Below, in pieces: positions 7,608 through 34,900 of a stretch of DNA of 43,821 nt (the first letter of the stretch is position 1; the number at the start of each line of letters is the position of its first letter). The notes beneath the pieces are model-generated. The model was not told the origin of the DNA and made no database searches. It saw nothing but the letters and a program-made list of their open reading frames with translations. Source of the DNA: a virus (lineage: Duplodnaviria > Caudoviricetes); IMG/VR virus record IMGVR_UViG_3300030376_002994, positions 1 to 43,821 of that record; one strand, given 5' to 3'. A program made the translations under genes and the position numbers.

Positions 7608-7916
7608 CTATAACCTATGGGGATTATATAACTTATAAAAAAGGGTTAGTTCTTCTCCTGTCACAATTAACACTAGGGTTTTTAATAGGTAGCCATTTTT
7701 TGTTTCAATTAATTCACAGTTTGGCCATTCGGAATGGTTTATAAATCCACCTAATGGTGTTCTTATAAGTCCATGTTTGAAAGCATTATTATCAGTCTTA
7801 TAATGTGTAATGCCTAGTAACTTTCCTTTACGGATTGGTCTTGTTGAAAATAACCCAAGGCCCTCTACTTTAGAAGGCCTTATGGTTAAGTGTTTAGGTA
7901 ATGGCTTATAGCTCAT
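7608..7916 (-). CDS. SET-domain protein (putative lysine methyltransferase)
   Basis: IRPSKVEGLGLFS, GFINHSEWPNC, GEELTLFY; start moved to MSYKPLP. Confidence 0.9.
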   Translation of the reverse strand: MSYKPLPKHLTIRPSKVEGLGLFSTRPIRKGKLLGITHYKTDNNAFKHGLIRTPLGGFINHSEWPNCELIETKNGYLLKTLVLIVTGEELTLFYKLYNPHRL

Positions 7917-8472
7917 CAGGATATTTCCATGTCTGTTCAGGAACAAAGTATTCACTACTTGGCAAATTCCAATGTTCCATAATGTCATGTTGTGTTATAT
8001 CATTACCTACATGTATACTGTCTGCTATATATTTAAACATTAACTTAGTAGGTTTACCTTTATTAAATCCTTTAATAAATTTACCGTCTACTAAATTCTT
8101 TAATCGTTGTAAGTAGTGAAGTGTTTGTTGTGTAACTTCACCACCTCTTTTCTTTCTTAACTTTCTAGTCATTAAATTGTTAGACACAACACTTTCATTG
8201 TAATCAAAAGTATATCTATCATTAGCTAATGTTTTAATAGAAGAAAGTTTATGACTAAATTCTAATTGTAAAGATAAACTGTCTTTAATTAATTTATATC
8301 TAACATATACTGGATTATTATCTTTAGTTAATCCTAAAAATCTTTTTCCTCCATACCAAGATATATTATTTAATTTTTCTTTAGTATCTTTAACTTTAAC
8401 TTTATTTTTGTCTATTTTATTATTAGCTTTTCTTTCTGTTAAAGTATAGAATCTAGTATTGATAGCTGTCAT
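7906..8472 (-). CDS. basic hypothetical protein
   Basis: Lys/Arg-rich ORF coupled to its neighbours; RBS GAGGAG. Confidence 0.7.
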   Translation of the reverse strand: MTAINTRFYTLTERKANNKIDKNKVKVKDTKEKLNNISWYGGKRFLGLTKDNNPVYVRYKLIKDSLSLQLEFSHKLSSIKTLANDRYTFDYNESVVSNNLMTRKLRKKRGGEVTQQTLHYLQRLKNLVDGKFIKGFNKGKPTKLMFKYIADSIHVGNDITQHDIMEHWNLPSSEYFVPEQTWKYPDEL

Positions 8473-8738
8473 TACTCCTCTTCCTCCTCTGTTTCCTTAT
8501 TAGGAAGAGTCTCAGATAACATTGTAAAATTATAGTTATAATCAATAACAAATTTATTTATTAATTCGTCTACCTTCATTGTATTAGGTAGTGTATTTGT
8601 TTTGTTATCTCCTAAGTATCCTATTAATGTCACTGCCCAATGTCTTAAGTCCATTGGTGTGTTAAAGATATTACCGTCAACTTTCTTTGAGTTGATTTCC
8701 TTTTGTATATCTTTTTTGCTTGGCTTAGCCATATTCAT
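8472..8738 (-). CDS. hypothetical protein
   Basis: ORF in operon, overlapping neighbours. Confidence 0.7.
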   Translation of the reverse strand: MNMAKPSKKDIQKEINSKKVDGNIFNTPMDLRHWAVTLIGYLGDNKTNTLPNTMKVDELINKFVIDYNYNFTMLSETLPNKETEEEEE

Positions 8739-9141
8739 CTACCTTTCCCCAGCAGCTCTTACTACTATTCCAATGATGCCAACCATCATTGTAAACTAAC
8801 CATGAAGCGACTGCTGTTGATACTTCAGGGTTATATCTATTACTTGTTAACTTTAATTTGGATGTTAACCACTCCCATGTATTATCATTGAATTGCCATA
8901 GCCCAATGTCCCTTGTTCCATTAGTATTGTCATTTACTATGTAGTCTCTACCTGAAGATTCACAATATATTATTGTCAATGCTTTAGGTATATCAATTGA
9001 CTTAAAGTATTTAGCAACTAATGGTTGCCATTCTTGAACATGTTCTATTTTCTTTTCAATGTCTTTACATTGGATATACTCAGCTACGCTGTCCAGGCTC
9101 ACAGGCAAAGATAATGCACAACTGAGTAATATTCCAACCAC
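8725..9141 (-). CDS. SLT-like lytic transglycosylase with N-terminal hydrophobic/signal segment
   Basis: IIYCESSG (catalytic Glu), DIGLWQFN...TW, GWHHW. Confidence 0.85.
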   Translation of the reverse strand: MVGILLSCALSLPVSLDSVAEYIQCKDIEKKIEHVQEWQPLVAKYFKSIDIPKALTIIYCESSGRDYIVNDNTNGTRDIGLWQFNDNTWEWLTSKLKLTSNRYNPEVSTAVASWLVYNDGWHHWNSSKSCWGKVDEYG

Positions 9142-9572: not shown

Positions 9573-10127
9573 TTATTGGTTATTCCCATCTAAGTTCCAT
9601 TCAGCAGGAACATCGGAATTATCTAGCCACCATGACTTTCTCCATTTACCTGTGTGACCACCGCATACTACAGGGTCATTAGTAGAACAAACAAAGTCTG
9701 GACTTTTGTCTGATTTTTTATTGTTTCTATTATCATAAACCATTTGTTTACAATAAGGACATTTTAAATCGTCACGAAACTTATTCTGATGTTCCATTTT
9801 AACGACTATCTTATCTGTTATGTTAGATATTCCAGCATCTGGTTCGGGTGTTATCTCAGTCACATCCCCCATTATACTAGATACTTTCTCTATGATATCC
9901 ATTTCTTCAAATTCTTTTTGATTAAATACTTCTGGCATATCTGCTAGTTTTTCTATATAATCAAAATATTTGCCTATTTGTACATCATTATAGTCAGTTA
10001 ATTTAACAGGAAACTTTCTTACTTTACCGTATTGTGCAGCAGATTGTAATATCTTTTGCTTAGTATCCTGTTGTTTACCTTCCAACATAGTACTTAAAGT
10101 TGTTCTTATAAAGTCTATGTCTTGCAT
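9573..10127 (-). CDS. protein with C-terminal Zn-ribbon / PDF-motif putative ssDNA-binding domain
   Basis: CPYC...YDNRNNK...PDFVC...C...W. Confidence 0.65.
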   Translation of the reverse strand: MQDIDFIRTTLSTMLEGKQQDTKQKILQSAAQYGKVRKFPVKLTDYNDVQIGKYFDYIEKLADMPEVFNQKEFEEMDIIEKVSSIMGDVTEITPEPDAGISNITDKIVVKMEHQNKFRDDLKCPYCKQMVYDNRNNKKSDKSPDFVCSTNDPVVCGGHTGKWRKSWWLDNSDVPAEWNLDGNNQ

Positions 10128-10669: not shown

Positions 10670-10686
10670 AATTTCCTTCCTATATA

Positions 10687-10732
10687 TTATAAAAGAGAAT
10701 AAACATTTGGTATCCGTTAGGATACCTTCACT
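10687..10732 (-). promoter_or_regulatory. hairpin-containing promoter-like cassette, copy 1
   Basis: Plus strand TTATAAAAGAGAATAAACATTT-GGTATCC-GTTA-GGATACC-TTCACT; TATAAT on the minus strand upstream of the annealase RBS. Confidence 0.7.
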
Positions 10733-12243: not shown

Positions 12244-13755
12244 TTATACTAGCTGATTTAATTGTAAAGCAAAGTGTTTTACTTCATCTATATCTGCTAG
12301 TCTCGTTATTCCTGAACGCTTGCATATTTCTATACAATCTTTTAATAAGTTAGTTGAGTTCTCATTATGTAATCCAAATACATACATATCACTCACCCAT
12401 ATTCTTTTTTGTGGTTGTTTAGATAGCCATTGCAAAGCAGGGCCATCAACTAAGTTACCACCGCCAGTCCATCTATCTAAATAGTCTTGACTAACTCTCT
12501 TACCATTGCGTCCTATAATTCTTAACGCACCTGATTCCCATGTTCCACCTCTATCGTTATACATAGCTATAGTAACTGCAGGAAGCAGTTGCATTATTTC
12601 TAGTATATCTTCGCCACTAAAGGACATAGAACCTGACGCATCTATTAGTATCGTTCCACCATATACTCTTTGTTTTTGTTTGAATACTTTTTTATCCACA
12701 CACCAACGATTCATATACTTTGGATTTACACCGTAATCCATAGGTCTATATTCTCTACCACCTTTAATCTTCGATTGTAAATTAACACTAAGATGTGGTT
12801 TAAATATATCCATTTTACCCCATTTACCCATATTATTTGGGTCTGGTACATAGTGCATATTCCCACCATCGTTAGCTTTCGAAAATATATCTTCTTTGTT
12901 ACGGTTATTTAATTCATCAAGAGTCATTTCATCAAATTCACCTTCTTGTGGTGACTTAGCTTCCATAGTTTTCTTATTAGCAGATAAAGCTTTTTCTTTA
13001 GCTTCTTTAGCTTTGCGTGCTGACTCTAATACCTGATGTTCTTCAGGTTTTTCATTAAATTCGTCCATTAATTTATTTAAAATTAATGCAGCCTTTCTAG
13101 TTTTGGTATACTTACTAGTTTTTCTACCATATCCTCTCGTATAACTAATTATTCTATACAAATTTAATGCTTGACTATATGCAAAATTCATTTGCTGTAG
13201 TCTAAGCTTAGTCATTTGATTTGGATGGTTTGGAAAGTCCTCTTGCATAGACAAGAGTTCTTTCATCGATTGTAAAATTGCTGCATCTTCTAAGCTATCA
13301 TTTTTGGCATAATAATATCTGTTACTATTACTTGGTTTCATATTCATTAGCATCCAAGCAGTCATTTCAAATACTGAACCGTTATAAAAAACACTTTCTG
13401 TATGTTCTAAAAACTTAGAAGGACATATTGTCCAATCATCAATCACTACATCCATAACAGATAAGTTATAATTAACACGAACTTCTTCGCATATTTCTAC
13501 ACATTTTTCTGATTCGTTTTCTTTTAACTTACCTATAGTTTTAGGACTCCACTTAGCATGGCCAAGTTCATGTCTTCTAATCATTTTGTTATGGTCACTA
13601 CCACACAATATACATATCTCATCACTTGTAGGTACATACATTTCGTGTGATAGGTTAGATGTTCTAGGTTGAGTTGTATCTTCAAATATTTTCCAAGGTC
13701 CCTCTCCAGATGCTATTTCTGGAAAGGGTATCTTGTTACTCTTCTTCTTGTACAT
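12244..13755 (-). CDS. CobT-like VWA protein with N-terminal HExxH metallopeptidase-like domain
   Basis: RRHELGHAKWS...EEVRVN; MIDAS motif ILIDASGSMS; VSD. Confidence 0.85.
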   Translation of the reverse strand: MYKKKSNKIPFPEIASGEGPWKIFEDTTQPRTSNLSHEMYVPTSDEICILCGSDHNKMIRRHELGHAKWSPKTIGKLKENESEKCVEICEEVRVNYNLSVMDVVIDDWTICPSKFLEHTESVFYNGSVFEMTAWMLMNMKPSNSNRYYYAKNDSLEDAAILQSMKELLSMQEDFPNHPNQMTKLRLQQMNFAYSQALNLYRIISYTRGYGRKTSKYTKTRKAALILNKLMDEFNEKPEEHQVLESARKAKEAKEKALSANKKTMEAKSPQEGEFDEMTLDELNNRNKEDIFSKANDGGNMHYVPDPNNMGKWGKMDIFKPHLSVNLQSKIKGGREYRPMDYGVNPKYMNRWCVDKKVFKQKQRVYGGTILIDASGSMSFSGEDILEIMQLLPAVTIAMYNDRGGTWESGALRIIGRNGKRVSQDYLDRWTGGGNLVDGPALQWLSKQPQKRIWVSDMYVFGLHNENSTNLLKDCIEICKRSGITRLADIDEVKHFALQLNQLV

Positions 13756-14509
13756 TTTTCAAACTAGTATCGTTAACATTCACATCAGATAATTTGATAG
13801 CGTCCAAAAGTTCACTACCTCTTTCACCGAATATCAATTCAGCTGCCATTTTCATGCCAACACCTTTTTGTTGTAACTCAAAGTATTCTCTCCAAGCTCT
13901 AACAGATATTCTTTCTTCCATATCTTCTGATAATGATGTATCACTTATTACTTGATGCCAAGTTTTAGGAAACATACTTAATGCCATAGGATGTATGGTA
14001 TCAACATGTATCTTCACTGGGAACCTATCTTTAAGTGCCATTGGTAGGCTCTCTGGTAGGCTGTTAGTAGTAGCAATAACATTAAAACCTTTCTTAGGTC
14101 TTACTGTTTCTTTGTCGTCATTATTTAATGTCAACTGTGCTATATCTTTGTCATCAAGTATAGCATGCAAGAATGTCATAGCATCAGGACTAGCGTGGTC
14201 AATCTCATTGACTACTAGTCTTCCACCTTTTCTCCATGCTTGTATAGCAATACCGTCATGCCATTCAAATCCACCATCTGAGTTAGGCTTATAAAAGCCT
14301 TCAAGGTTTGCACTAGCAGTGTCCTCTGTCATGGTTATTTGATATACATTAGGTTCGCCTTGTAGGTTTAATCCTACTTTATTGGTTGCAGCAGCATATG
14401 TTTTACCAGTTCCTGGTGGCCCATATAGTAATATTCTATCGCTATTACCAATTGCTGTCTTTACTTTGTCCCAACAAGTTACTACTTTCGTAGCTGTATC
14501 TTCACTCAT
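13736..14509 (-). CDS. MoxR/CobS-type AAA+ ATPase (AAA_5)
   Basis: Walker A GPPGTGKT, Walker B variant LVVNEID, IATTN, ALKDRF; start moved to MSEDTATK (RBS GGGAG). Confidence 0.92.
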   Translation of the reverse strand: MSEDTATKVVTCWDKVKTAIGNSDRILLYGPPGTGKTYAAATNKVGLNLQGEPNVYQITMTEDTASANLEGFYKPNSDGGFEWHDGIAIQAWRKGGRLVVNEIDHASPDAMTFLHAILDDKDIAQLTLNNDDKETVRPKKGFNVIATTNSLPESLPMALKDRFPVKIHVDTIHPMALSMFPKTWHQVISDTSLSEDMEERISVRAWREYFELQQKGVGMKMAAELIFGERGSELLDAIKLSDVNVNDTSLKNVQEEE

Positions 14510-14520
14510 TGTTCTCCCTT

Positions 14521-14838
14521 CTAGAATGTGTTGTTCACATCCTGTAGCTTTACAAAACGACAATATATTTCTACAATGCCGTCTTCATTTTTCCTTTGTT
14601 TGACTTCAAACATACCTTTATCTTTAAGATGTCTGATATTAGTTTGAGTCATATTTTCTATATTTTGTTTAACACCTGATATCCAATTAGTAGATTCAGC
14701 TATCATATACCATTCATTAGGTGTAGATAGTAATGTTTCTACTTTATCATCTGTTAAAATTGTAGGTGTTTTACCTTTCCTACTATGATTAGAAGCCGGT
14801 GGCGTTTTTCGTACTAATTTGTTACTCTGTATCGCCAT
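14521..14838 (-). CDS. hypothetical protein
   Basis: ORF in operon, overlapping upstream gene. Confidence 0.7.
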   Translation of the reverse strand: MAIQSNKLVRKTPPASNHSRKGKTPTILTDDKVETLLSTPNEWYMIAESTNWISGVKQNIENMTQTNIRHLKDKGMFEVKQRKNEDGIVEIYCRFVKLQDVNNTF

Positions 14839-15397
14839 CGTTTTCCTCAGTTTGTTCTTTAAGCCATTCCTCTGCCATACTAGCTGTATGTTCAGAATGA
14901 TTTATAACTTCATTCATTGACCTGTTAATCATTGAATCTTCATTATCTTTCATAACTACTTGTATGCTAGTTGGTTCGCTAAAGAACATACGATTGAACA
15001 TACCACTATTACCCATATTGTGTAATATTGTATGTTGTTCTTGATAACTTTTATCGTCACTTACTCCAGATATCCAACCTGTCATTAAGCAAGCTTTACG
15101 ATACGCATCAATTCTCATTGCCGCATCAATTGCTTCTCTAGGTCCTACTGCTGTTATTTCATATCTAGATGCAACTTCATCAAGTTCTGTTAAGTTAAGA
15201 AACTTATCATCCCAAAATGATACATGTTCATCATCTCTTTGATATGTCATTACTACGATAAAGTCATACAATTTACTATTAGGTAAAACGATATTATCTC
15301 TATATCCAAACATAGCTTTTGTTATAAAGTCATCCTCATTGCAATCATGGTCACCACACTCACAATGTTCATCCTTATCTTCATATTCTTCAGTCAT
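14822..15397 (-). CDS. acidic hypothetical protein with N-terminal HCECGDHDC motif
   Basis: ORF in operon. Confidence 0.7.
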   Translation of the reverse strand: MTEEYEDKDEHCECGDHDCNEDDFITKAMFGYRDNIVLPNSKLYDFIVVMTYQRDDEHVSFWDDKFLNLTELDEVASRYEITAVGPREAIDAAMRIDAYRKACLMTGWISGVSDDKSYQEQHTILHNMGNSGMFNRMFFSEPTSIQVVMKDNEDSMINRSMNEVINHSEHTASMAEEWLKEQTEENDGDTE

Positions 15398-15698
15398 ATA
15401 TTTTCCCTTCTTCTACTTCCCAAGGTTCAAAGTTAGCGTGACATCTTTCACACCACCATAATTCTGAATTGTCATCGTCAAATAGTAAATCACCATTACA
15501 TAATGAACAATAGAATCCTTCGGGTATTTCTTCTTTGGTTACAAGTGCAAGCATATCTTCTATAATACGCTGCTCTATAAGCAGCTGTTTATTGTTATAC
15601 TTCCACCATTTAATAATATTATAATTGAAATCACTTAATCTTATATAGACTTGTAAGTAGAATCGTTTATAATCGTTATATGTCATCCTCATTGTCAA
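15390..15698 (-). CDS. hypothetical protein with C-terminal Zn ribbon
   Basis: CSLC...WWCERC. Confidence 0.65.
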   Translation of the reverse strand: MTMRMTYNDYKRFYLQVYIRLSDFNYNIIKWWKYNNKQLLIEQRIIEDMLALVTKEEIPEGFYCSLCNGDLLFDDDNSELWWCERCHANFEPWEVEEGKIYD

Positions 15699-17381: not shown

Positions 17382-17776
17382 TCTTCCTCCATTTGATTGA
17401 GTATGTCATCCAATACTTGTTCATTTCTTGTTACAAACGCAACATAATCATCCCATAATGTATCAAATACATTCTTTAAGTCTCCATTACCTATATCGTT
17501 TTCAGTTTGTGTTACAAGATTTATTGGCTGACCGTCTTCATCGTTTATGCTGAGTGTTAAATCAAAGAAATCATTGAAATTGTGTATTACTTTCCAATGT
17601 AGTGTTCTATTGTTTATTGTAATGTCAAACTCTATACCACCGTGATAATCTTGTATTCTTTCACCAGATGGATTGTTAGTAAGTATCATTACATTTTCTA
17701 ACATATTATACATACCTAATGGCATTAAATCTGTAATACTACCAGCACTGTATGTATTTACTTCTTTAGTAATCAT
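17378..17776 (-). CDS. hypothetical protein
   Basis: ATGA overlap, AGGAG RBS. Confidence 0.7.
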   Translation of the reverse strand: MITKEVNTYSAGSITDLMPLGMYNMLENVMILTNNPSGERIQDYHGGIEFDITINNRTLHWKVIHNFNDFFDLTLSINDEDGQPINLVTQTENDIGNGDLKNVFDTLWDDYVAFVTRNEQVLDDILNQMEEE

Positions 17777-17979
17777 TTTCCTGCTCCTTTTTTCTGATTA
17801 TCTAATTCATCGTAATAACTTAACGCATCATTACGAATACTGCCTTGTTCTCTACTAATCAATATATCTAAACTTTCATTAGCAAGTTTCTTACTTGCAT
17901 TATCATCTATTACTTTTAGTGATAGTAAGTTATTAATTGATTTGTGTAATATTTCAATATGGTCTAGTAATTTATCCAT
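17773..17979 (-). CDS. hypothetical protein; start moved to MDKLLDH
   Basis: GAAAGGA RBS before Met18 of the track ORF. Confidence 0.65.
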   Translation of the reverse strand: MDKLLDHIEILHKSINNLLSLKVIDDNASKKLANESLDILISREQGSIRNDALSYYDELDNQKKGAGK

Positions 17980-18028
17980 AATGTCCTTTCTTCGTCTCAT
18001 ATGGGTGTTACAAGAACTCCCTTGTCCC

Positions 18029-18059
18029 AAAAAAAAGGTGCTAGGGGGCGTTAGCCCCC
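18029..18059 (-). terminator. probable intrinsic terminator after the SSB-like gene
   Basis: GGGGGC-TAAC-GCCCCC hairpin, then a T8 tract 7 nt downstream on the minus strand. Confidence 0.65.
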
Positions 18060-18074
18060 CAACAGTCCCTTTAA

Positions 18075-18482
18075 CTATTCAGTGTAGCCCCATAGTTCCT
18101 TAGTCATAGCAGGTGCCTTATAGATACCTTTTATGACAAGCTGGGTGCCTCGATTTATCCATTCACCGTCATCACCTTTGTATGACTGTTCCTGAGCAAC
18201 TGCCTCAATAAGTACAGGTTCCGTTTTAGGACGCCCATTCTCACCAACAGGTGCGTTAGCGATAAGTTGTTGCAGTTGAGTTGCAGTAGCATTATCAGCA
18301 TTATTAAATGCCTTAGCGATACTACGATTGTTCTTACCTACAAACTTAACACCAAAGAAAACGCCGTTTCCCATAGTGCCCGGTTGTGTAGGGTCTTTAG
18401 TTATTGTTGTAAAGAAGCCGACTTCCCTTAGTATCCCAAGGTTAACCATTGCTCCCTCATATTCCTTTAATAAACTCATCAT
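18075..18482 (-). CDS. SSB-like OB-fold protein lacking an acidic tail
   Basis: ITKDP...AKAFNNA...PVLIEAVAQEQSYKGDDGEW...QLVI resembles the SSB pattern; strong RBS GGAAAGGAG. Confidence 0.6.
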   Translation of the reverse strand: MMSLLKEYEGAMVNLGILREVGFFTTITKDPTQPGTMGNGVFFGVKFVGKNNRSIAKAFNNADNATATQLQQLIANAPVGENGRPKTEPVLIEAVAQEQSYKGDDGEWINRGTQLVIKGIYKAPAMTKELWGYTE

Positions 18483-18529
18483 ACTCCTTTCCTTTAAGTT
18501 ATATTAATTGATTAGTTTAATATAATGAG

Positions 18530-18575
18530 TTATAAAAGAGAAAAAACATTTGGTCCTCGTTAGAGGGCCTACACT
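18530..18575 (-). promoter_or_regulatory. hairpin-containing promoter-like cassette, copy 2
   Basis: Plus strand TTATAAAAGAGAAAAAACATTT-GGTCCTC-GTTA-GAGGGCC-TACACT, collinear with 10687-10732. Confidence 0.7.
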
Positions 18576-18650
18576 ACATTTAATTTTAATAGAGATACTC
18601 CATAAGGGAACATATAAGTCTAAAGCAGTAGTAAGTTACTGCAAACTAAA

Positions 18651-18730
18651 GCGTTAGCGTTCATACCGTTAGGTTGCGTTAGCAAAGGTCGTTAGACCCA
18701 CGGATGTTAATCCGGCTGTTCGTTAGAACA
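18651..18730. repeat. array of six mini-hairpins with constant GTTA loop and different stems (candidate origin or pac element)
   Basis: GC/GC, ACC/GGT, TTGC/GCAA, GGTC/GACC, CGGAT/ATCCG and TGTTC/GAACA stems, each around GTTA. Confidence 0.85.
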
Positions 18731-18948
18731 TATGTAAGTAGTAAAAAATATGCTGGTAATTCAGTAATACAGTATAGGAGGAGAGCCTGTCAGGGCATGA
18801 GCGGGCCTATATATATTAATGTTTATGATTTAAATGTCTTTTTAATCCTTGAGTACTAGGTTTGTGTTTCTGCTTTACTGTCCTACCAGTCCCTAGCTTT
18901 CTGCACCCCGATTGCAACTTTACTTGTAATTAAATTCTTTCCAAATGT

Positions 18949-18977
18949 TTGTAATATCTTTCAATATAGCATATAAT
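18949..18977 (+). promoter_or_regulatory. sigma70-type promoter for the terminase/structural arm
   Basis: TTGTAA-17 nt-TATAAT. Confidence 0.7.
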
Positions 18978-19013
18978 AATATCTAAGCAAGTATCTAAGA
19001 AGGATTAGTTTGA

Positions 19014-20930
19014 ATGTCTAATAAGCCCCATAAAGTTTGTGCAGGAACAGGATGTAAAAAATGGTTAAAAGGGAAGCAGAGACGCTTCTGTTCTACTACT
19101 TGCAACAAAAGAACTTGGGCCCAGGAAAAAGCATCAGGTAAAGAGAATGTTACTAAAGCAATTAATAAAGAATTAAAGTCCGATACTGGTGATTATGCTT
19201 CTATAAGGAGGGGTACACACTATGAGAACTTTAAAGCAACCTATGCAGAAGACTTAGCAGGGGGCCTTATCACCACCCTAGAGGTATCAGAGGCCATTGG
19301 CACCAGTTCAGCTACTGTTTCTCGCATGCTCGCTGCCTACAAGATAGACAGAGATAATGAGATTAAAGCCGAAGACTGGCAACTAAGTGAAACCCAGACT
19401 GAAATATTACAAAATTTTTCTAGCTTTCGCTCTAAATACTTTGCTACAGAAACAGGGGAGAAATTCGAGACTGCAGACTTTCATGAAAACTGGATACTTA
19501 ACATAGAAGACAGTATAGAGAACGGTAAAGAGTTATTAATACTATCACCCCCAAGACATGGAAAGACAGAACTACTTATACACTTTGCTATATACCAAAT
19601 AATGAAGAACCCCAACATAAGAATCATGTGGGTTGGAGGTAACGAGGATATTGCCAAGAACGCATTAAGCTCTGTACTAGAACATCTTGATGACAATGAC
19701 AGATTGATAGAAGACTTCTGTCCTCCTGGAAAGAATTTTAAACCTGATAACCGTTCAGGAAAGAACTGGTCACAGAATCAATTTACTGTAGGTACAAGAA
19801 CAGTACCAGGTATTAAATCACCAACTATGGTTGCTATAGGTAAGGGTGGAAAGATTTTATCTCGTGACTGTGACTTGATTATTGCTGATGACATTGAAGA
19901 CCATCAAACAACTATGCAACCTGGTGCAAGAGAGAACACTAGACAGTGGTGGACTACTACTCTCTCATCAAGAAAAGAGGAACATACTGCTGTAGTAGTA
20001 ATTGGTTCAAGGCAACACTCAGATGATTTATATCATCACTTACTTGCTAATGATAGTTTTACAACAATAGTTGAAACAGCACATGATATAGCTTGTCCTA
20101 TACCTGACCATTTTGAATCTGAACATATTGAGTGTATGTTGTGGCCAGGCAAAAGAACTTTCACTTGGTTAATGTCTCGTATGCGTGCAGCAGAGACTAC
20201 AGGTGGTAGAAAGATTTATGAAATGGTTTATTACAATCAAGCTTTTGTTGAAGGTACACAAATCTTTACTATGGATATGGTTGATAATTGTTTCAGACCA
20301 GACTTGACGATAGGGCAAATACCAGGTGGATTGCATTTAGTTGCAGGACTTGACCCAGCTTCGTCAGGATATCAAGCAGCTGTACTATGGGGTATAAACT
20401 CTTATAGAGGTGAGCTTTTCTTAATTGATTTAGAGAACAGACAAGGTGGGGGAGTGAAACATGCTTTACAAATTATGTCTGACTGGTATCACAAATATGA
20501 TTTACAACATTGGGTTATTGAAGAAAATGGATTTCAATCTGCTATAAGACAAGATGATAAAATAAAAGAATTTGTTTTAAGGTCAGGTATAACTATGCAA
20601 GGACATGTTACTGGAAAAAATAAACATGACCCTATGTATGGTGTAGGTTCAATGGCTGGTTTATTTGAAAATCAAAAAATACATTTACCAGTTGGAAATA
20701 GTGAAAGTATGGCTAAAATAAATGCTTATAAAACACAGTTATTATATTTTGATGGAAAGCCTGTTTCTGTGCGAAACAAAGAAAAAACTGATATAGTGAT
20801 GGCTGGATGGTTTCCAATGAAAGTGTTTAGAAGAATGAACAAAGAGCAACTTGCTACTATGGGACTAGATTATAACGCAAGTCACACAAATTTCAAAGGA
20901 ACCGACTATAATGAGGCACCATGGGGATAG
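19014..20930 (+). CDS. terL: terminase large subunit with N-terminal Zn-finger plus HTH extension
   Basis: Walker A SPPRHGKT, Walker B LIIADD, IGSRQHSDD, RNase H-like AGLDPA, IEENGFQ, TDIVMA. Confidence 0.95.
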   Translation: MSNKPHKVCAGTGCKKWLKGKQRRFCSTTCNKRTWAQEKASGKENVTKAINKELKSDTGDYASIRRGTHYENFKATYAEDLAGGLITTLEVSEAIGTSSATVSRMLAAYKIDRDNEIKAEDWQLSETQTEILQNFSSFRSKYFATETGEKFETADFHENWILNIEDSIENGKELLILSPPRHGKTELLIHFAIYQIMKNPNIRIMWVGGNEDIAKNALSSVLEHLDDNDRLIEDFCPPGKNFKPDNRSGKNWSQNQFTVGTRTVPGIKSPTMVAIGKGGKILSRDCDLIIADDIEDHQTTMQPGARENTRQWWTTTLSSRKEEHTAVVVIGSRQHSDDLYHHLLANDSFTTIVETAHDIACPIPDHFESEHIECMLWPGKRTFTWLMSRMRAAETTGGRKIYEMVYYNQAFVEGTQIFTMDMVDNCFRPDLTIGQIPGGLHLVAGLDPASSGYQAAVLWGINSYRGELFLIDLENRQGGGVKHALQIMSDWYHKYDLQHWVIEENGFQSAIRQDDKIKEFVLRSGITMQGHVTGKNKHDPMYGVGSMAGLFENQKIHLPVGNSESMAKINAYKTQLLYFDGKPVSVRNKEKTDIVMAGWFPMKVFRRMNKEQLATMGLDYNASHTNFKGTDYNEAPWG

Positions 20931-29111: not shown

Positions 29112-30740
29112 ATGACCACTGAAAATAATAAATCAAGAGAACGAGGCAAAAAATTTAGACAGTGGATTCTTAGTTTATTTAACCAACCAGCAACTCAAGA
29201 TTATCTGGAAATGAAATATGGTATTACACCTGAAGCATTACCTACATATGGTAATTGGGAATCAGATGTTGACTTTGAAAGCTGGATTTTTAATCTTGGT
29301 GGAGATGGAATGTTAGAAAGTATTGTAATAGCTGGAGTAGAAATTCCTATTAAAGAGCTTCCAAGTTATGAAGAAAATTTTAAAGAACCATTGGGTAGTA
29401 CAGGATTTTGGGGAGGTGTATTTGATTTACCTGCAGAGTGGGATGATTACGCTGTAGAAATTTTAAAAACTGAAGGTAAGATAAATACAGTACCAGAAAC
29501 ACCAGAAACATATGGACCTACTGAATCTCCTGGTGCATCATTTACTGGTGAAGCAACAGGTGAGATACAAGAAGAGATGGATGCTGAAGAAGCAGCTGAC
29601 CCTGATTTTCAAGCTTTAAAAGAAGGAACAGTAGAAGAAGAAGAACCAGGTTCTAAGTTTTATCAATGGTCAGATTTTGAAAAGAACTCATTAACTGAAA
29701 AACAATGGGAAGATTACTTAGAAGCTATCCAAAGAGGTCAAACACCAGCAGAAGCATGGGGTCAGGTTACATTTGGTGACCCAGCTAATTTCAATTACAT
29801 ATACACATGGGATGGTGAAAAAAGAAAACCAGCTTATTTTTATGATGAAGAAATTAGTCCAAATCCAATTCCAATTCCTATAGCTGCTCAACCAGTAAAT
29901 CATATATCTGAAAATCTTTTTATGGGTCAAATTCATAATCAGTTTTCTCCAGACCAAGTTGAATGGTTAAAAGATTTCTTAATTATGAGTGGTGTAGCAG
30001 AAGATGGTGATTTTGCTGCACATGGTTTTGTTGATAGAAGTTTAGAATTATATTTAGGACAGATGATTGAAATGGCTAATACTAATTATGGTCATATTGC
30101 ACATAAAAGTGATGACTATTACAAATTAATAGAATCTGGAAAATCAATATTTGGTGGAAATAAACCTGTTGGCTTAACTGAACAACAATGGTTTGAATGG
30201 GGATTGTTTGCAACAGTTAGTTCACAATATGGTGTGACTCTGGATAAATCTGCTGAAATTAAAGCAAAAGAAATAGCTCAAAAAACATTAGCTGATAATG
30301 CATTGCCAAGTAAAGAAACAATGGCTCGTAGTATTAAAGCGTTAGTTAAAGAACAAATAGGTTCTGATGCTACTGAAGAACAAATACGAGAGTACACAGA
30401 TTACTGGATAGCTAGTCAAACTGAATGGGGTAAACAAATAGAGTATGCAAATAAAGTTGCTGAAGTTGGAATGGATATAGAACATTATCATATTAAATCT
30501 GGTAGAACTCTTACTATGGAAGAAGTTATGGCTATGGAAGCTGAAGCAGGTGCAGGTGGAGATACTTTAACAGGAATAGTAGGTACTAGAGATAAAGTTC
30601 CAACAGTTACAGACCCTTGGGCTTCTACTTACGATTTAATTGTAGGTGATTTAGCAGATGAAAAAGAAATTATAGAAGCTGGTAGGAAAAAGAGAGCTAA
30701 ACAATCTGGTGTCTTACAAGCAATGGCAGGTAAGTTTTAA
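29112..30740 (+). CDS. putative internal virion protein, acidic
   Basis: Context; QVEWLKDFLIMSGV...GFVD weakly resembles a peptidoglycan-binding helix pair. Confidence 0.55.
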   Translation: MTTENNKSRERGKKFRQWILSLFNQPATQDYLEMKYGITPEALPTYGNWESDVDFESWIFNLGGDGMLESIVIAGVEIPIKELPSYEENFKEPLGSTGFWGGVFDLPAEWDDYAVEILKTEGKINTVPETPETYGPTESPGASFTGEATGEIQEEMDAEEAADPDFQALKEGTVEEEEPGSKFYQWSDFEKNSLTEKQWEDYLEAIQRGQTPAEAWGQVTFGDPANFNYIYTWDGEKRKPAYFYDEEISPNPIPIPIAAQPVNHISENLFMGQIHNQFSPDQVEWLKDFLIMSGVAEDGDFAAHGFVDRSLELYLGQMIEMANTNYGHIAHKSDDYYKLIESGKSIFGGNKPVGLTEQQWFEWGLFATVSSQYGVTLDKSAEIKAKEIAQKTLADNALPSKETMARSIKALVKEQIGSDATEEQIREYTDYWIASQTEWGKQIEYANKVAEVGMDIEHYHIKSGRTLTMEEVMAMEAEAGAGGDTLTGIVGTRDKVPTVTDPWASTYDLIVGDLADEKEIIEAGRKKRAKQSGVLQAMAGKF

Positions 30741-33700
30741 TGGCTGATATATCAAAAGAAGAGTTTATAAAGGCGTTAAAAGCTAATAATACAATACCTG
30801 AAGCTACAAAATTAGTTCTGTTAGAAGCATTAGAGAATGCACCAGCTAAACAAAAGTTTGATTCAAAAGTAAAAGATTATTTAGATGGGATAAAAGAAGG
30901 ATACTTAGAAGTAGATGAATTAATGGATTTCTTAGAAGATGAATTTGGATATGATAAATCTTCAGGAACTTTTAATGACCCAAAAGCAGCTAAAGAAGTA
31001 ACAGAGAAAGCTAAAGAAACTACATCTAAAGAAGCTCAAGCTAAAGCTGACAAAGTTACTGAAGCTCCAGATATTGCTAAACAAGTTGTCTTACAAGGTA
31101 AAGAAGATGAATTTGTAGACCAGCTTGAAGGTGTTGGTGATGATGGTATTGTAGATGAAGGTGAGGGTTTTGATGATTGGATGGATAAAAGAAATAAAAG
31201 AATAGTTAAAAGTGGTGGTACAGTACGAGCTATGCGTGGTGGTGAATTAGGTAATCCATTTTATTATAAAGGTGGTGGAAAAGATGCAATAGTAAAAGTA
31301 GGTATTGAAGAATCAGCAGATGTAGTAATGCCAAAAGGAAGTACTGAAGATGATTTAATTAAAAAAGTTGTTGAACTACATAAAGACTGGTTAACTTGGT
31401 CTAACTTACCTGAAGGTTTAAGTGATGACCAATTGTTTGAATTACAAGCTCTAAGAGATAAACAATTAACAATTATGGGTAACTTACCTGATGATTATAC
31501 ATTAGAATATTACAGACCAGATGCTGAATCCTCGCATGCTAAAACATTAGTAGATTTTATAGATAATACAGGAGATTTTGATTTAAAGGGTGATGGCATA
31601 ACACTTGAGGTATCAAGTAAAGGAGATGAATTTGGTAAACAGTTCTCTGCTTTAAATGCTACTTTTAAAGAAGGTGAATATGCTGGTAAAACTATAGAAG
31701 ATGTATGGCAAAATGAAATTAAAAAATCTGGTAAAGGTAAACCACCTGCAGAAGGAAGTGTATTATTTGGTAAATCTTTTGAAGATAGCAAAGCTGCTTA
31801 TCAAGAATTATGGGAAATGTGGGCTGTTGAGAATCCTCAATTAATAGCTGAATTGCAAGATAGAGTTAATCAAGGATATCAATTAGTAGATTCATTTGGT
31901 AAAGAAGGAACTGTAAATCAAGCAGAAGCTTTAACTAACATAATATATAATTTAAATAATGAAGAAAAAGCATTAAAAGCAGATGAAGCTAAAAGTAGAC
32001 AAGTTCCATTTGAAAAAGTACCCACTACCCAACCAGGACCTGGAGTATCAAGAGCAAACAGTAATTATTGGGGTGTAAGAACTGGAGATAATTATATAGC
32101 TGCTGCTGAAGCTGAGGGGTTTACTCTTGACTTTACAAGTGAAGATGCAGGTAGTGGTAGTACTAAAAAGTCAGGTGCTTATGAACCAAACTTAAAAATA
32201 ATGAGAGAATTTCCTCATTTAAAAGGATTATCTGATGAAGAAATACTAAATGCAACTTATAAACAAATTAAATTAACAAAAGACCTTAAATTTGCAAACC
32301 CAGATGAAGTAGCAGAAATAGCTGCATTAGTAGCAAAAGCTTTAAACAATGGTAAAACAATTAATATTGCAGGTAATCAAGTGTATAGGTTTCCAAATAA
32401 AACTCAAAATGATGTCGATAGATTATTTGCAGAATTTATGGATATGGTTCAAGATAATCCAGTTACTGATTGGAATAATGCTACTATTAGAAGTGGTGGC
32501 CAAAATGGATTTGATTTATCTGGTTTAAGATGGGCCAACTTCTTTAATATACCTTTTAGATTACATACTGGTAAAGATAAATTATATAGAATGATAGGTG
32601 GTGGAGATGTAGTAGGTGATATAAATGAATATATTCCTTTATTACAATATGATGAAAAAGGTAGATTTAATGATGAACAATTAAAAACACCAAAGAAAAC
32701 TACTTCAAGTAATAAAGCTACAACTCAACCTAAAACAACTGAGAAGTTACCTCCTGATACTAGTAAAACTCTTAAAAGGTTACAAAGCGAATTTGAAAAT
32801 ATTAAAGATTCTTCTAAAGGTGTTAAAGACCAATGGTGGAAATCATTAACACAAGACGAACAAAATTATATTAAAACTCTTATAGAACAAAAGAATGTTA
32901 CTGCATCAGCACAAGGTACACCAGATGTTAAAGCAACAGCAGAACCAGATATACCTACTAGAAAAACAGGACAAATGGAATTAGAACATTTTTGGTTAAA
33001 CAAACAATATAATGAAATGATACCTGTTTCATCTGTTGATGGTGCTTCTAGTTGGAGACGATATGTTCCAATGGGAGTTAAAATTCATGATTGGGAAACA
33101 AACAAAGCTAAGTTAATAAACGGTATGCCAGCTGGAACAGCATATGAACCTGTACAAATATTAAGAGGTTATCAAACAGGTCTAGTGCTTCCTGAGACAA
33201 TGGCTGATATAACTAAAAATCCTCAAAGCTTTATTAAAGATGGAGAAGCTACTTATCAAAGAACAAAACCAGGAGAATATGACCCTAGAACAGTTAAAAG
33301 TGTAAACAAAAAAACTGGTGAAATTAAAAAAGTACCAGGTGTTGAACCAGTTAAATTAGAAAAAGGTTCAGCAGAAGTTACAGGTTTAATTAAAGAAGGA
33401 GATATTATAACTTCAGGATTTGCAAGTGACGCTGAAAAAGATGTTACTAGATATATTAACCAAACAACAGATGTAGGAGCTAGACCTGCAGCTGGTTTTG
33501 GTGTTAATTATGGTGTACCGGTTAAAGTAGTAAAAGCTTGGCAATTACCAGAACAAATTACTGAAGAATTTTTTGATACACCATTAGCTAAAAAAATGGC
33601 TGAATCTTTAAATCTTACTGATGAAGCATTAAAAGAAAAATTACTTTTTGGTAAAAAGAATAAAGAAGGTAAAAATAGCATGATACCTTTTAATAAAAAA

Positions 33701-34900
33701 ACATTCTGGAATGGTTGGTTTTATGAAGTAGAACCTATTGCATTGAATGATGAAAATTATAAATGGGAACAAGTACAACAAAAGCATTTACAAGCTGATA
33801 TTGAAACAGATGTTGCTATGAAGAACTGGTTTGGTCATAAATATGGAATAAAGAACTTAGCTGCAGTTGGTGGCCTATTAATGAGACTAGCTCCTATAGT
33901 TGATTACGGTGAATATGCGTATGGTTTTGGTATCAAAGGTGTAAATGCTTTAATTAAACAAGCAGAAAAAGGATTCATAGGAGCTCAAGCTACTAAATAT
34001 ATACCTGGAAATATGATATATTCTAAATTAGCTAGAGATGTTGGAGATGTAAGAAAAGGCCTTTTACCTAAAACTAGAGGTTTCTTAGGTGAAATGGGTA
34101 CTAGAGCTAAAGTTACAGCATTCGGTGGTAGGGAAGCAGCTAAAGGAGCACATACAACAGGAGAACTTTTCAAAAGTAAAATAGGTAAAAGAGTAACAGC
34201 TAAAGGTGCTACAGGTTCGGTTAAATATGTAGGTCTGTATGAAAAATATAACTTCCTTTATGGTTTATTATCTGGATTACTTTTATCGGGTATAGAGACA
34301 TTAGGAATTATTGGTAAAGATACTATTGGTGAAAACAATATCAGAACTCAATTAGGTGGAGATTATGAAGCATGGGCTGAAAGTAATGGAATATTAGATA
34401 AGATAGGACCTTGGCCATTGATATCTAGCTTAGAAAGAGCTGAATCATTAGGTTATTTAGATGAAGGATTTACAGATAATTATATTAATCAAACAAATAC
34501 TAAATGGATGGGAGTAGTACACGAATTTCTAGGTACAGAACATTATGACCAAATGGATAAAGTTAATGTTCTTTGGCAAGATAAAAAAAGACCTAGAGGT
34601 TGGTTTACTAGTTTCAATGATATCTTTGGATTAAGTTCTGAAGGTGCAATAGCAAATGCTGGTGTTCTTCCTAGAACTGGTTTAGCTCCTGCTATTAAAA
34701 GGTCTCCAATAGTTTCTGGTATTGAGATACCATTTGAAAATTGGTTCTTACCTAAAGTAGGATTAGATAGTTGGGTAGTAGAAGACAAACCTTTAACAAT
34801 ACAAGATGAAGAAGATTTTGCTAATCAAGTAGGACAAATACCTGCTACAGTAGATAATAATGCATGGCTAGGAAACATAGCTGACTTTGGAGATTACTAA
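30740..34900 (+). CDS. polyvalent multi-domain protein (DUF4326-like, EVSSKGD domain, SLOG/cpYpsA-like)
   Basis: RGGELGNPF...SHAKTL; EVSSKGD..FSALNA..TIEDVWQ..NQAEAL; RTGDN..TINIAGN..IRSGGQNGFD. Confidence 0.7.
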   Translation: MADISKEEFIKALKANNTIPEATKLVLLEALENAPAKQKFDSKVKDYLDGIKEGYLEVDELMDFLEDEFGYDKSSGTFNDPKAAKEVTEKAKETTSKEAQAKADKVTEAPDIAKQVVLQGKEDEFVDQLEGVGDDGIVDEGEGFDDWMDKRNKRIVKSGGTVRAMRGGELGNPFYYKGGGKDAIVKVGIEESADVVMPKGSTEDDLIKKVVELHKDWLTWSNLPEGLSDDQLFELQALRDKQLTIMGNLPDDYTLEYYRPDAESSHAKTLVDFIDNTGDFDLKGDGITLEVSSKGDEFGKQFSALNATFKEGEYAGKTIEDVWQNEIKKSGKGKPPAEGSVLFGKSFEDSKAAYQELWEMWAVENPQLIAELQDRVNQGYQLVDSFGKEGTVNQAEALTNIIYNLNNEEKALKADEAKSRQVPFEKVPTTQPGPGVSRANSNYWGVRTGDNYIAAAEAEGFTLDFTSEDAGSGSTKKSGAYEPNLKIMREFPHLKGLSDEEILNATYKQIKLTKDLKFANPDEVAEIAALVAKALNNGKTINIAGNQVYRFPNKTQNDVDRLFAEFMDMVQDNPVTDWNNATIRSGGQNGFDLSGLRWANFFNIPFRLHTGKDKLYRMIGGGDVVGDINEYIPLLQYDEKGRFNDEQLKTPKKTTSSNKATTQPKTTEKLPPDTSKTLKRLQSEFENIKDSSKGVKDQWWKSLTQDEQNYIKTLIEQKNVTASAQGTPDVKATAEPDIPTRKTGQMELEHFWLNKQYNEMIPVSSVDGASSWRRYVPMGVKIHDWETNKAKLINGMPAGTAYEPVQILRGYQTGLVLPETMADITKNPQSFIKDGEATYQRTKPGEYDPRTVKSVNKKTGEIKKVPGVEPVKLEKGSAEVTGLIKEGDIITSGFASDAEKDVTRYINQTTDVGARPAAGFGVNYGVPVKVVKAWQLPEQITEEFFDTPLAKKMAESLNLTDEALKEKLLFGKKNKEGKNSMIPFNKKTFWNGWFYEVEPIALNDENYKWEQVQQKHLQADIETDVAMKNWFGHKYGIKNLAAVGGLLMRLAPIVDYGEYAYGFGIKGVNALIKQAEKGFIGAQATKYIPGNMIYSKLARDVGDVRKGLLPKTRGFLGEMGTRAKVTAFGGREAAKGAHTTGELFKSKIGKRVTAKGATGSVKYVGLYEKYNFLYGLLSGLLLSGIETLGIIGKDTIGENNIRTQLGGDYEAWAESNGILDKIGPWPLISSLERAESLGYLDEGFTDNYINQTNTKWMGVVHEFLGTEHYDQMDKVNVLWQDKKRPRGWFTSFNDIFGLSSEGAIANAGVLPRTGLAPAIKRSPIVSGIEIPFENWFLPKVGLDSWVVEDKPLTIQDEEDFANQVGQIPATVDNNAWLGNIADFGDY

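Follow-up and report, generated by a model that had tools for sequence, protein, structure and literature searches.

A GTTA-loop hairpin array near the predicted genome end of a marine phage, best read as a variant of known hairpin signals

Between the divergent gene arms of a virus from marine samples lies an array of six GTTA-loop mini-hairpins, which is best read as a variant of known hairpin signals that falls outside the N4 and G4 families. The window analysed here is the whole stretch of DNA, positions 1-43,821 of the record (43,821 nt). Structure and a G-N-T-A loop have been selected together, in one clade only: the hairpins have compensated stems and are biased to one strand and one gene arm, and related copies stand at a 19-nt spacing from a TCTWTTRTR motif that is followed by a ribosome-binding site. 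Tentatively, we propose that the array is a set of early promoters of the hairpin type, amplified at the entering end of the genome and read by the host polymerase with a phage factor, a reading that we hold to be quite possible though short of probable. From sequence comparison, the array very probably lies at a packaging end near 18733, where it would form the predicted last ~83 nt of the right terminal repeat. The features discussed are collected in Table 1.

Table 1. Coordinates of the features discussed, as positions in the window
Feature	Position	Strand	Remarks
Six GTTA-loop mini-hairpins, 2-5-bp stems	18651..18730	+	Template strand of leftward early genes
Leftmost array unit	18651..18663	+	Degenerate here; complete element (5-6-bp stem and full downstream motif) in ~half of the clade
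Stand-alone element: 7-bp GTTA hairpin (18552-69) and minus-strand TCTWTTRTR, 19 nt from loop, motif 9/9	18529..18569	+	Upstream of first early gene
Second stand-alone element	10686..10726	+	39 nt upstream of Rad52-family annealing gene
Same loop, 11-pair stem with G-U pairs and U8 tail, without motif	18031..18064	-	Intrinsic terminator-like
102-aa helix and zinc-ribbon protein	15390..15698	-	Array-bearing genomes only; candidate hairpin reader
Dyad-like motif (T)TGAC-N8-GTYAA	18693..18710		Under hairpins 4 and 5; family-wide, 68/85 distinct loci in register
GTA / A-tract / TGGTAA block	18731..18759		Family-wide; near gap-free spacing from dyad
Predicted physical right end of packaged genome	18732..18734		By homology: with three cultured BF phages, whose end lies 23 nt past TGTTAA
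Predicted structured RNA	18788..18955	-	Family-wide; nested multi-stem junction and pseudoknot
Predicted RNA promoter: extended -10 TG-n-TA-nnn-T (18971-63), TTG (18990-88)	18963..18990	-	Column conservation 0.87-1.0 (130 loci)
Sigma-70-type promoter, terminase/virion operon	18949..18977	+	Back to back with, and overlapping, the RNA promoter
Leftward genes	from 18482	-	Small genes, AAA ATPase, exonuclease, Rad52-family annealase
Rightward genes	from 19014	+	TerL, portal-like protein, very large ejection-type proteins, SU10-type capsid, tail genes
TerL with N-terminal Cys-rich extension	19014..20930	+	Top cultured matches by E-value are Streptomyces cluster-BF phages

The hairpin array and its conservation

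All six hairpins of the original prediction are present with the stems assigned to them, and five of the six close with C-G as claimed, the exception being the fifth (18701-14), which closes with T-A. Three outlying copies had also been listed. Those at 10709-26 (7 bp) and 18044-59 (6 bp) are real, whilst the third amounts to four perfect pairs at 18555-66, or to seven pairs with one G-T when counted from 18552. An additional 2-bp GTTA copy at 18253 lies within an ORF. As a chance statistic we took the largest cluster of same-loop hairpins (stem of at least 2) within 80 nt, observed here as 6. The proposed scan against shuffled controls bore the array out, with 1000 dinucleotide shuffles of 18483-19013 peaking at 4 (4/1000); 60 mononucleotide shuffles of the whole window peaked at 5 (1/60) and none reached 6. 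Moreover, the array is identical in contigs from other sequencing runs (X2/X3, 17500-18772; X4, 18517-18924), with 0 differences.

At least three top-strand C-GNNA-G hairpins occur at the array site in 14 of 132 distinct related loci and are absent from 118. Over all loci, such hairpins number 90 on the top strand vs 8 on the bottom strand. On a TerL tree, a branch with support 100/98 separates the array-bearing rows (16/48) from all others. Being confined to one clade, the array is not a family-wide origin, and an essential origin or pac signal is not supported, since the 118 loci without it keep the underlying terminus motif. Across 12 sequences of the array, 84.6% of stem cells are paired and 17 of 32 pairs have changed on both sides, which upholds the view that structure is selected. 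The 2-bp GC-GTTA-GC cores are retained, pair 233-240 being G-C in 12/12. Loop variants GCTA and GATA, found in one lineage, keep the top-strand G..A pair, as fits DNA GNNA loops. The claim of freely varying stems under a constant loop stands as far as selected pairing is concerned; it does not extend to hairpins 4 and 5, which overlie an older, family-wide GAC-N8-GTTAA motif and whose loops are therefore not simply free repeats.

The TCTWTTRTR motif is never present in five of the six array units. At the leftmost unit the motif score is 7-9/9 in six relatives (G002, G004, L005, L006, L007, L009) and 2-5/9 in four others (L022, L060, G003, L098); the window's own unit did not pass the stem filter, and L222, a near-identical relative, scores 2. 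To the left, ~125 nt from the predicted end, GGAAC at 18606-18612 is invariant in 12 array-clade sequences and is possibly the left boundary or a second site of the terminal repeat. In non-array clades the same slots hold repeated hairpins of their own (L211, L213-L215, L217-L218; G006-G010, upstream of the annealase and first early genes). These comprise CCCC/GGGG stems in G006, bulged TCCGAC/GTCGGA stems in G007 and G009 and, before the annealase gene, long bulged stems that resemble RNA structures.

Stand-alone elements and the promoter reading

The two stand-alone elements of the window have 19 of 20 flanking letters in common. Throughout the array clade, 6-7-bp copies mostly lie 35-75 nt ahead of leftward genes, and a count of hairpins with at least 5/7 pairs over 12 sources (105 and 90 kb) gives 57 for the template strand of the early arm, while the three remaining combinations of strand and arm have 1, 5 and 8. 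Of the 36 stand-alone hairpins, 24 have TCTWTTRTR at offset 19 past the loop, on the transcript strand, and no alternative offset between 8 and 33 accounts for more than 2, the motif having been derived from the sequences scored and homologous sites counted more than once. The element repeats at unrelated sites within single genomes (four plus an array unit in each of G004 and G002, three plus in L007), and ribosome sites usually come ~6-25 nt after the motif. The original prediction had missed this recurrence of the hairpin ahead of early genes at a constant distance from a second motif; the recurrence points to transcription.

As a promoter cluster, the array would be the tandem form of a G-N-T-A hairpin that is otherwise placed singly before early genes. 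At the predicted end it would act as a loading pad and first promoter for the host RNA polymerase, with a helper that is likely phage-made. On this view the genome would be linear and its short terminal repeat would stop near 18733; such an end would sever the right-end early genes from the leftward promoter at 18963-90, so that they would need promoters of their own. We envisage hairpin extrusion on the template strand, on the model of the N4 early promoters, at the place of a -35 element; TCTWTTRTR would be the melting and start region, and the extra motif-less array units would be added binding sites. The leftmost unit may be a full promoter in some lineages that has decayed in the window. 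A phage protein would read the hairpin, with the clade-specific zinc-ribbon protein and an ejected protein as possible candidates.

The early promoters of coliphage N4, as described in PMC4496689, are read by a virion RNA polymerase and consist of a template-strand hairpin whose pairing is kept and whose stem letters are free, with a G-A pair in a conserved loop; this podophage has several of them at its early end. The present elements are alike in all of these sequence features and include template-strand hairpins of 5-7 bp with variable stems. According to the same source, the N4 loop consists of 3 nt, all purines, with its centre at -11; transcription starts 11 nt away from it, and the polymerase is T7-like and packaged in the virion. 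Here the loop is a 4-nt GNTA, the conserved motif lies 19-27 nt away and the tandem copies lack the motif. Sequence methods (motif scan, Pfam/PHROG, and a PDB profile of the 1939-aa family) identified no virion RNA polymerase, and the N4 mechanism therefore cannot apply directly. By language-model features (0.93), LPD38-type ejection proteins are the closest match to the 1939-aa protein. In Pfam/PHROG family searches none of the 43 ORFs matched a polymerase, primase, helicase or deformylase. This agrees with the original picture of a phage lacking its own replisome and leaves no peptide deformylase to be its "PDF protein", which is probably the KSPDF-motif ORF at 9573-10127.

The zinc-ribbon gene is present in 8/8 array records and 0/41 others, many of the latter being fragments. 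It was found at 14 loci, of which 11/11 checked carry the hairpin element and the other three are contigs already counted. The link between this gene and the array is a single evolutionary event in one clade. The protein had no match at E<=0.001, and its predicted fold (pLDDT 80) gave no function. A 71-aa neighbour was considered as a clade-specific protein and rejected, being present in 20/49.

The promoter reading gains from the array loci showing no excess of canonical leftward promoters within 940 nt left of the structured RNA (3 in 9 loci vs 2.3 expected) and from the loop being no habit of the host, since 0/39 hairpins in 400 kb of a probable host had it. Among the points against the reading, non-array clades are also without canonical promoters (13 in 58 loci vs 18.6 expected), and the 18044 copy is terminator-like. 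A host ECF-sigma reading of CTAACG-N18-TCTWTT was rejected, having 0 matches in five probable host genomes and leaving the stems unexplained.

The same letters may instead work as RNA. On the leftward transcript they give c(UAAC)g hairpins with a U/C-rich box, which could be terminators, processing sites or boxB/boxA-like antitermination sites; the array would then lie where a transcript starting at 18955 has its 3' end and would offer many sites, as a sponge or a loading stretch. We think this unlikely, although it has substance: the conserved leftward promoter faces the array, and the downstream motif has what we take to be a resemblance to boxA. The 18044 copy has a minus-strand fold of -23 kcal/mol and a U8 tail, with a GAAA loop in a non-array relative. 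On the minus strand, however, a U run straight after a GC-rich stem occurs at 18044 only, and not at 10709, 18552 or the array; most elements have 3-4 U in the 8 nt past the stem and conserved letters 12-20 nt beyond. As minus-strand RNA, cognate flanks fold at -17.97 v -16.89 kcal/mol for shuffled partners (p 0.015, 26 elements; top strand, p 0.32), and the favoured lower stems include G-U pairs. Against this, several elements are without a lower stem, and many array units retain just two pairs, too weak as RNA alone. The core stems, unlike the neighbouring RNA, show no wobble bias (G-U counts, strand vs strand, of 5 v 5 in stand-alone copies and 1 v 3 in the array), a test that is uninformative for short stems and whose filter for T at loop position 3 was applied to the array units but not to the stand-alone copies. 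Loops of the UAAC type are mimics of GNRA, and according to PMC12550061 the CUAACC loop of phi21 boxB is bound by N peptide. UAAC fits that loop, but the UAUC variants (GATA on top) do not and lie outside UMAC/UNAC. The elements share with lambdoid nut sites such as phi21 boxB a CUAAC loop, a short stem, a U/C-rich box and a place on the early transcript; unlike nut sites, they come in many copies, place the hairpin before the box and include UAGC/UAUC variants.

The predicted genome end and its neighbouring RNA

The predicted right end derives from three cultured BF genomes, Immanuel3, FlowerPower and WRightOn, whose terminal repeats measure 275, 253 and 264 bp and which have an A-rich tract shortly past the right end. 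A BF podophage with a 265-bp repeat is also reported in PMC13097060. In the marine family, GTA follows GAC-N8-GTYAA at 79/85 loci. A profile of 81 marine loci, its blocks picked after viewing the alignment, placed the Immanuel3 end 2nd-4th of 92,018 positions, or 34th without the A-tract block; the WRightOn end ranked 1st, while the FlowerPower end came no higher than 16th (within 700 nt, both strands). Among 29 matches, which are assembled contigs, 0 ended at the predicted terminus and there was no pile-up of ends, a result that speaks neither for nor against the prediction. As judged from these alignments, the terminus motif predicts genome ends for the whole marine family. The original idea of a pac or ejection signal survives as a very probable packaging end, by homology with cluster-BF termini, and is unsupported as regards the array being an essential pac signal. 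Streptomyces cluster-BF podophages (Beephvirinae) likewise begin with TerL and have early genes that point inward from the right end; TGTTAA and an A-tract surround that end, and their palindrome-rich terminal repeats measure 253-275 bp. Immanuel3 matches the window in TerL, portal, a 140-aa protein and a tail protein, in identical gene order. Unlike the window, it is without the GTTA array, has its own primase and helicase as well as TTGACA promoters near the right end, and gave 0 matches to the covariance model of the structured RNA.

At such an end the hairpins might also serve as single-stranded DNA. The top strand would become the right-end 3' tail after 5' resection or strand displacement, and its hairpins could block 3' exonucleases, exclude SSB for the Rad52-like annealase or offer DnaG start sites. 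The last hairpin does stop ~3 nt before the predicted end, the 2-bp cores are kept in all 12 sequences, an exonuclease and an annealase are encoded beside 0 primase matches, and BF terminal repeats are rich in palindromes (11 in 275 nt vs 3 expected). Moreover, GCGTTAGC is, according to PMC13037366, a measured ssDNA mini-hairpin of the St-1 and alpha3 DnaG primase origins, and SSB has a poor affinity for a related mini-hairpin repeated in tandem, in line with the stability of GNNA loops in ssDNA that the original prediction cited. The GCG-NN-AGC mini-hairpin of the G4/St-1/alpha3 origins occurs at 18651-58 and 18676-83. Further likenesses to these origins are adjacent hairpins and reliance on host replication proteins. 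The origins have an ssDNA template and one essential origin, whereas here a dsDNA tailed phage has 5-6 equal-loop units, with copies before genes, in one clade. This function seems doubtful to us, as it leaves the fixed motif and the stand-alone copies 8-9 kb inside the genome unexplained, and 118/132 relatives manage without an array. It and the promoter reading can both hold. That the array itself is the family's terminase (pac) recognition site or replication origin is improbable. In its favour are the overlap of the array with the predicted end and with the point at which GC skew turns, and a TerL that has an N-terminal extension with no separate small terminase recognised in the window. 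Against it, the skew follows gene direction, and the terminus motif that the array covers and adjoins persists, free of hairpins, in non-array clades whose TerL is 70-84% identical.

The structured RNA that adjoins the array is the more surprising object of the two and may be a new class. Its consensus fold has -17.98 kcal/mol vs -6.37 for the other-strand alignment, and over 32 sequences 97.3% of cells are paired and 20 of 28 pairs are compensated; one stem has 70 G-U and 0 A-C among 492 cells. The pseudoknot joins loop 18910-07 with ~18805-02 (loop-to-3'), beside a covarying tertiary pair, 18906-18872. It reads CGGG/CCCG in 113 loci and CGAG/CUCG in 9, concordant in 122/123, the exception being a chance bacterial match. 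Pattern scans found the RNA in at least 119 stretches, with ~370 viral contigs estimated, and the covariance model recovers distant members; three pattern matches in the genome collection were two phage contigs in MAGs and one chance match. Where flanks sufficed, terL lies divergent within 1.5 kb of the RNA at 137 of 147 loci, and the others viewed have genes inserted there. In L144 (767-1012) and L151 a host-derived ferredoxin gene sits between the RNA and terL, and in other relatives a nuclease-like or methyltransferase-like gene. Rfam 15 gave no credible match at E<=5-10 for the window or for the RNA in 20 relatives, only chance hits. Likenesses to c-di-GMP-I, ZTP, SAM-I and hairpin-ribozyme cores, suggested from recall, had no model support in Rfam and were set aside. 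A protein-coding reading of 18790-18950 was also rejected, with no ORF of at least 60 aa and covariation by base pairing.

The predicted transcription of the RNA heads toward the predicted end, and A6 at 18743-48 becomes a U6 tract on the leftward transcript about 10 nt before it. By inference only, the RNA could antiterminate in the manner of put, serve as the precursor of a primer, or take part in packaging or in the duplication of the terminal repeat. The pause at the concatemer junction in T7 would be a parallel. The pRNA of phi29 is encoded at the genome end near the packaging machinery. Like that pRNA (PMC7617512) and like HK022 put RNA, which also comes just downstream of a promoter, the neighbouring RNA is a structured RNA of a phage; unlike both, it is ~165 nt long, with its own junction and pseudoknot and no Rfam family match. 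A broader proposal joins host-polymerase hairpin promoters, working with no phage polymerase, to a new pseudoknotted, terminus-directed RNA that would couple a paused polymerase to terminase cutting or repeat duplication and so replace the small terminase; we offer it as a speculative combination with a modest chance of being right.

We found no literature account of the array, the hairpin-motif element or the RNA. The RNA is not among the readable supplements of PMC10690425 (Fremin 2023), whose alignment archives lay outside the search and whose 8,495 unnamed candidates may include it or a piece of it. The available parts of PMC7771536 and PMC5628999, on Actinomarina phages, do not mention array, element or RNA. 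If the promoter reading is true, a hairpin promoter read by host polymerase would be a new phage route to seizing transcription, and the element is short enough for oligonucleotide tests. The terminus prediction would supply physical ends for a large family of uncultured phages of a major ocean actinobacterial group. The covariation of the RNA is of ribozyme or riboswitch grade with no known family, suited to probing, cleavage and binding assays, and the RNA may be relevant to the duplication of short terminal repeats by a phage that has no polymerase of its own.

Gene content and probable host

The host is probably a streamlined marine actinobacterium, judging from a gene carried by a relative. 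The ferredoxin of L144 is 89-96% identical to that of 28/31 genomes of the order of an Actinomycetota MAG, all ~1 Mb, and the order that we infer from it is Ca. Actinomarinales; one 88% match carries a Pelagibacter label. The phage TerL is present in 1/65 genomes of the probable host order, as co-binned phage contigs. An Actinomycetota MAG (G050 contigs C36 and C30; L200, L219-L221) contains family contigs with three strong TerL matches, probably co-binned.

By eye, TerL at 19014-19350 has an N-terminal Cys-rich segment and a helix-turn-helix-like stretch. At 30740-34900 lies a 1386-aa protein of the ejection cluster whose sole family match is phrog_9995; the protein in this slot measures 538 to 1514 aa in relatives and has a modular look, in the style of polyvalent proteins. 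ARAGORN found no tRNA or tmRNA. The 191-aa early protein and the 135-aa first early protein had no usable match, and their SSB-like character is an impression only. The early arm also encodes a SET-domain protein (7608-7988) and a transglycosylase (8725-9141; SLT/resuscitation-factor-like). The complete relative G010 carries a ParB-N-domain gene and a 204-aa neighbour without a Pfam match (L218:5466-6850), both missing from the window. A MoxR-type AAA ATPase and its 503-aa partner (12244-14563, minus strand) are kept in the early arm of nearly all relatives examined.
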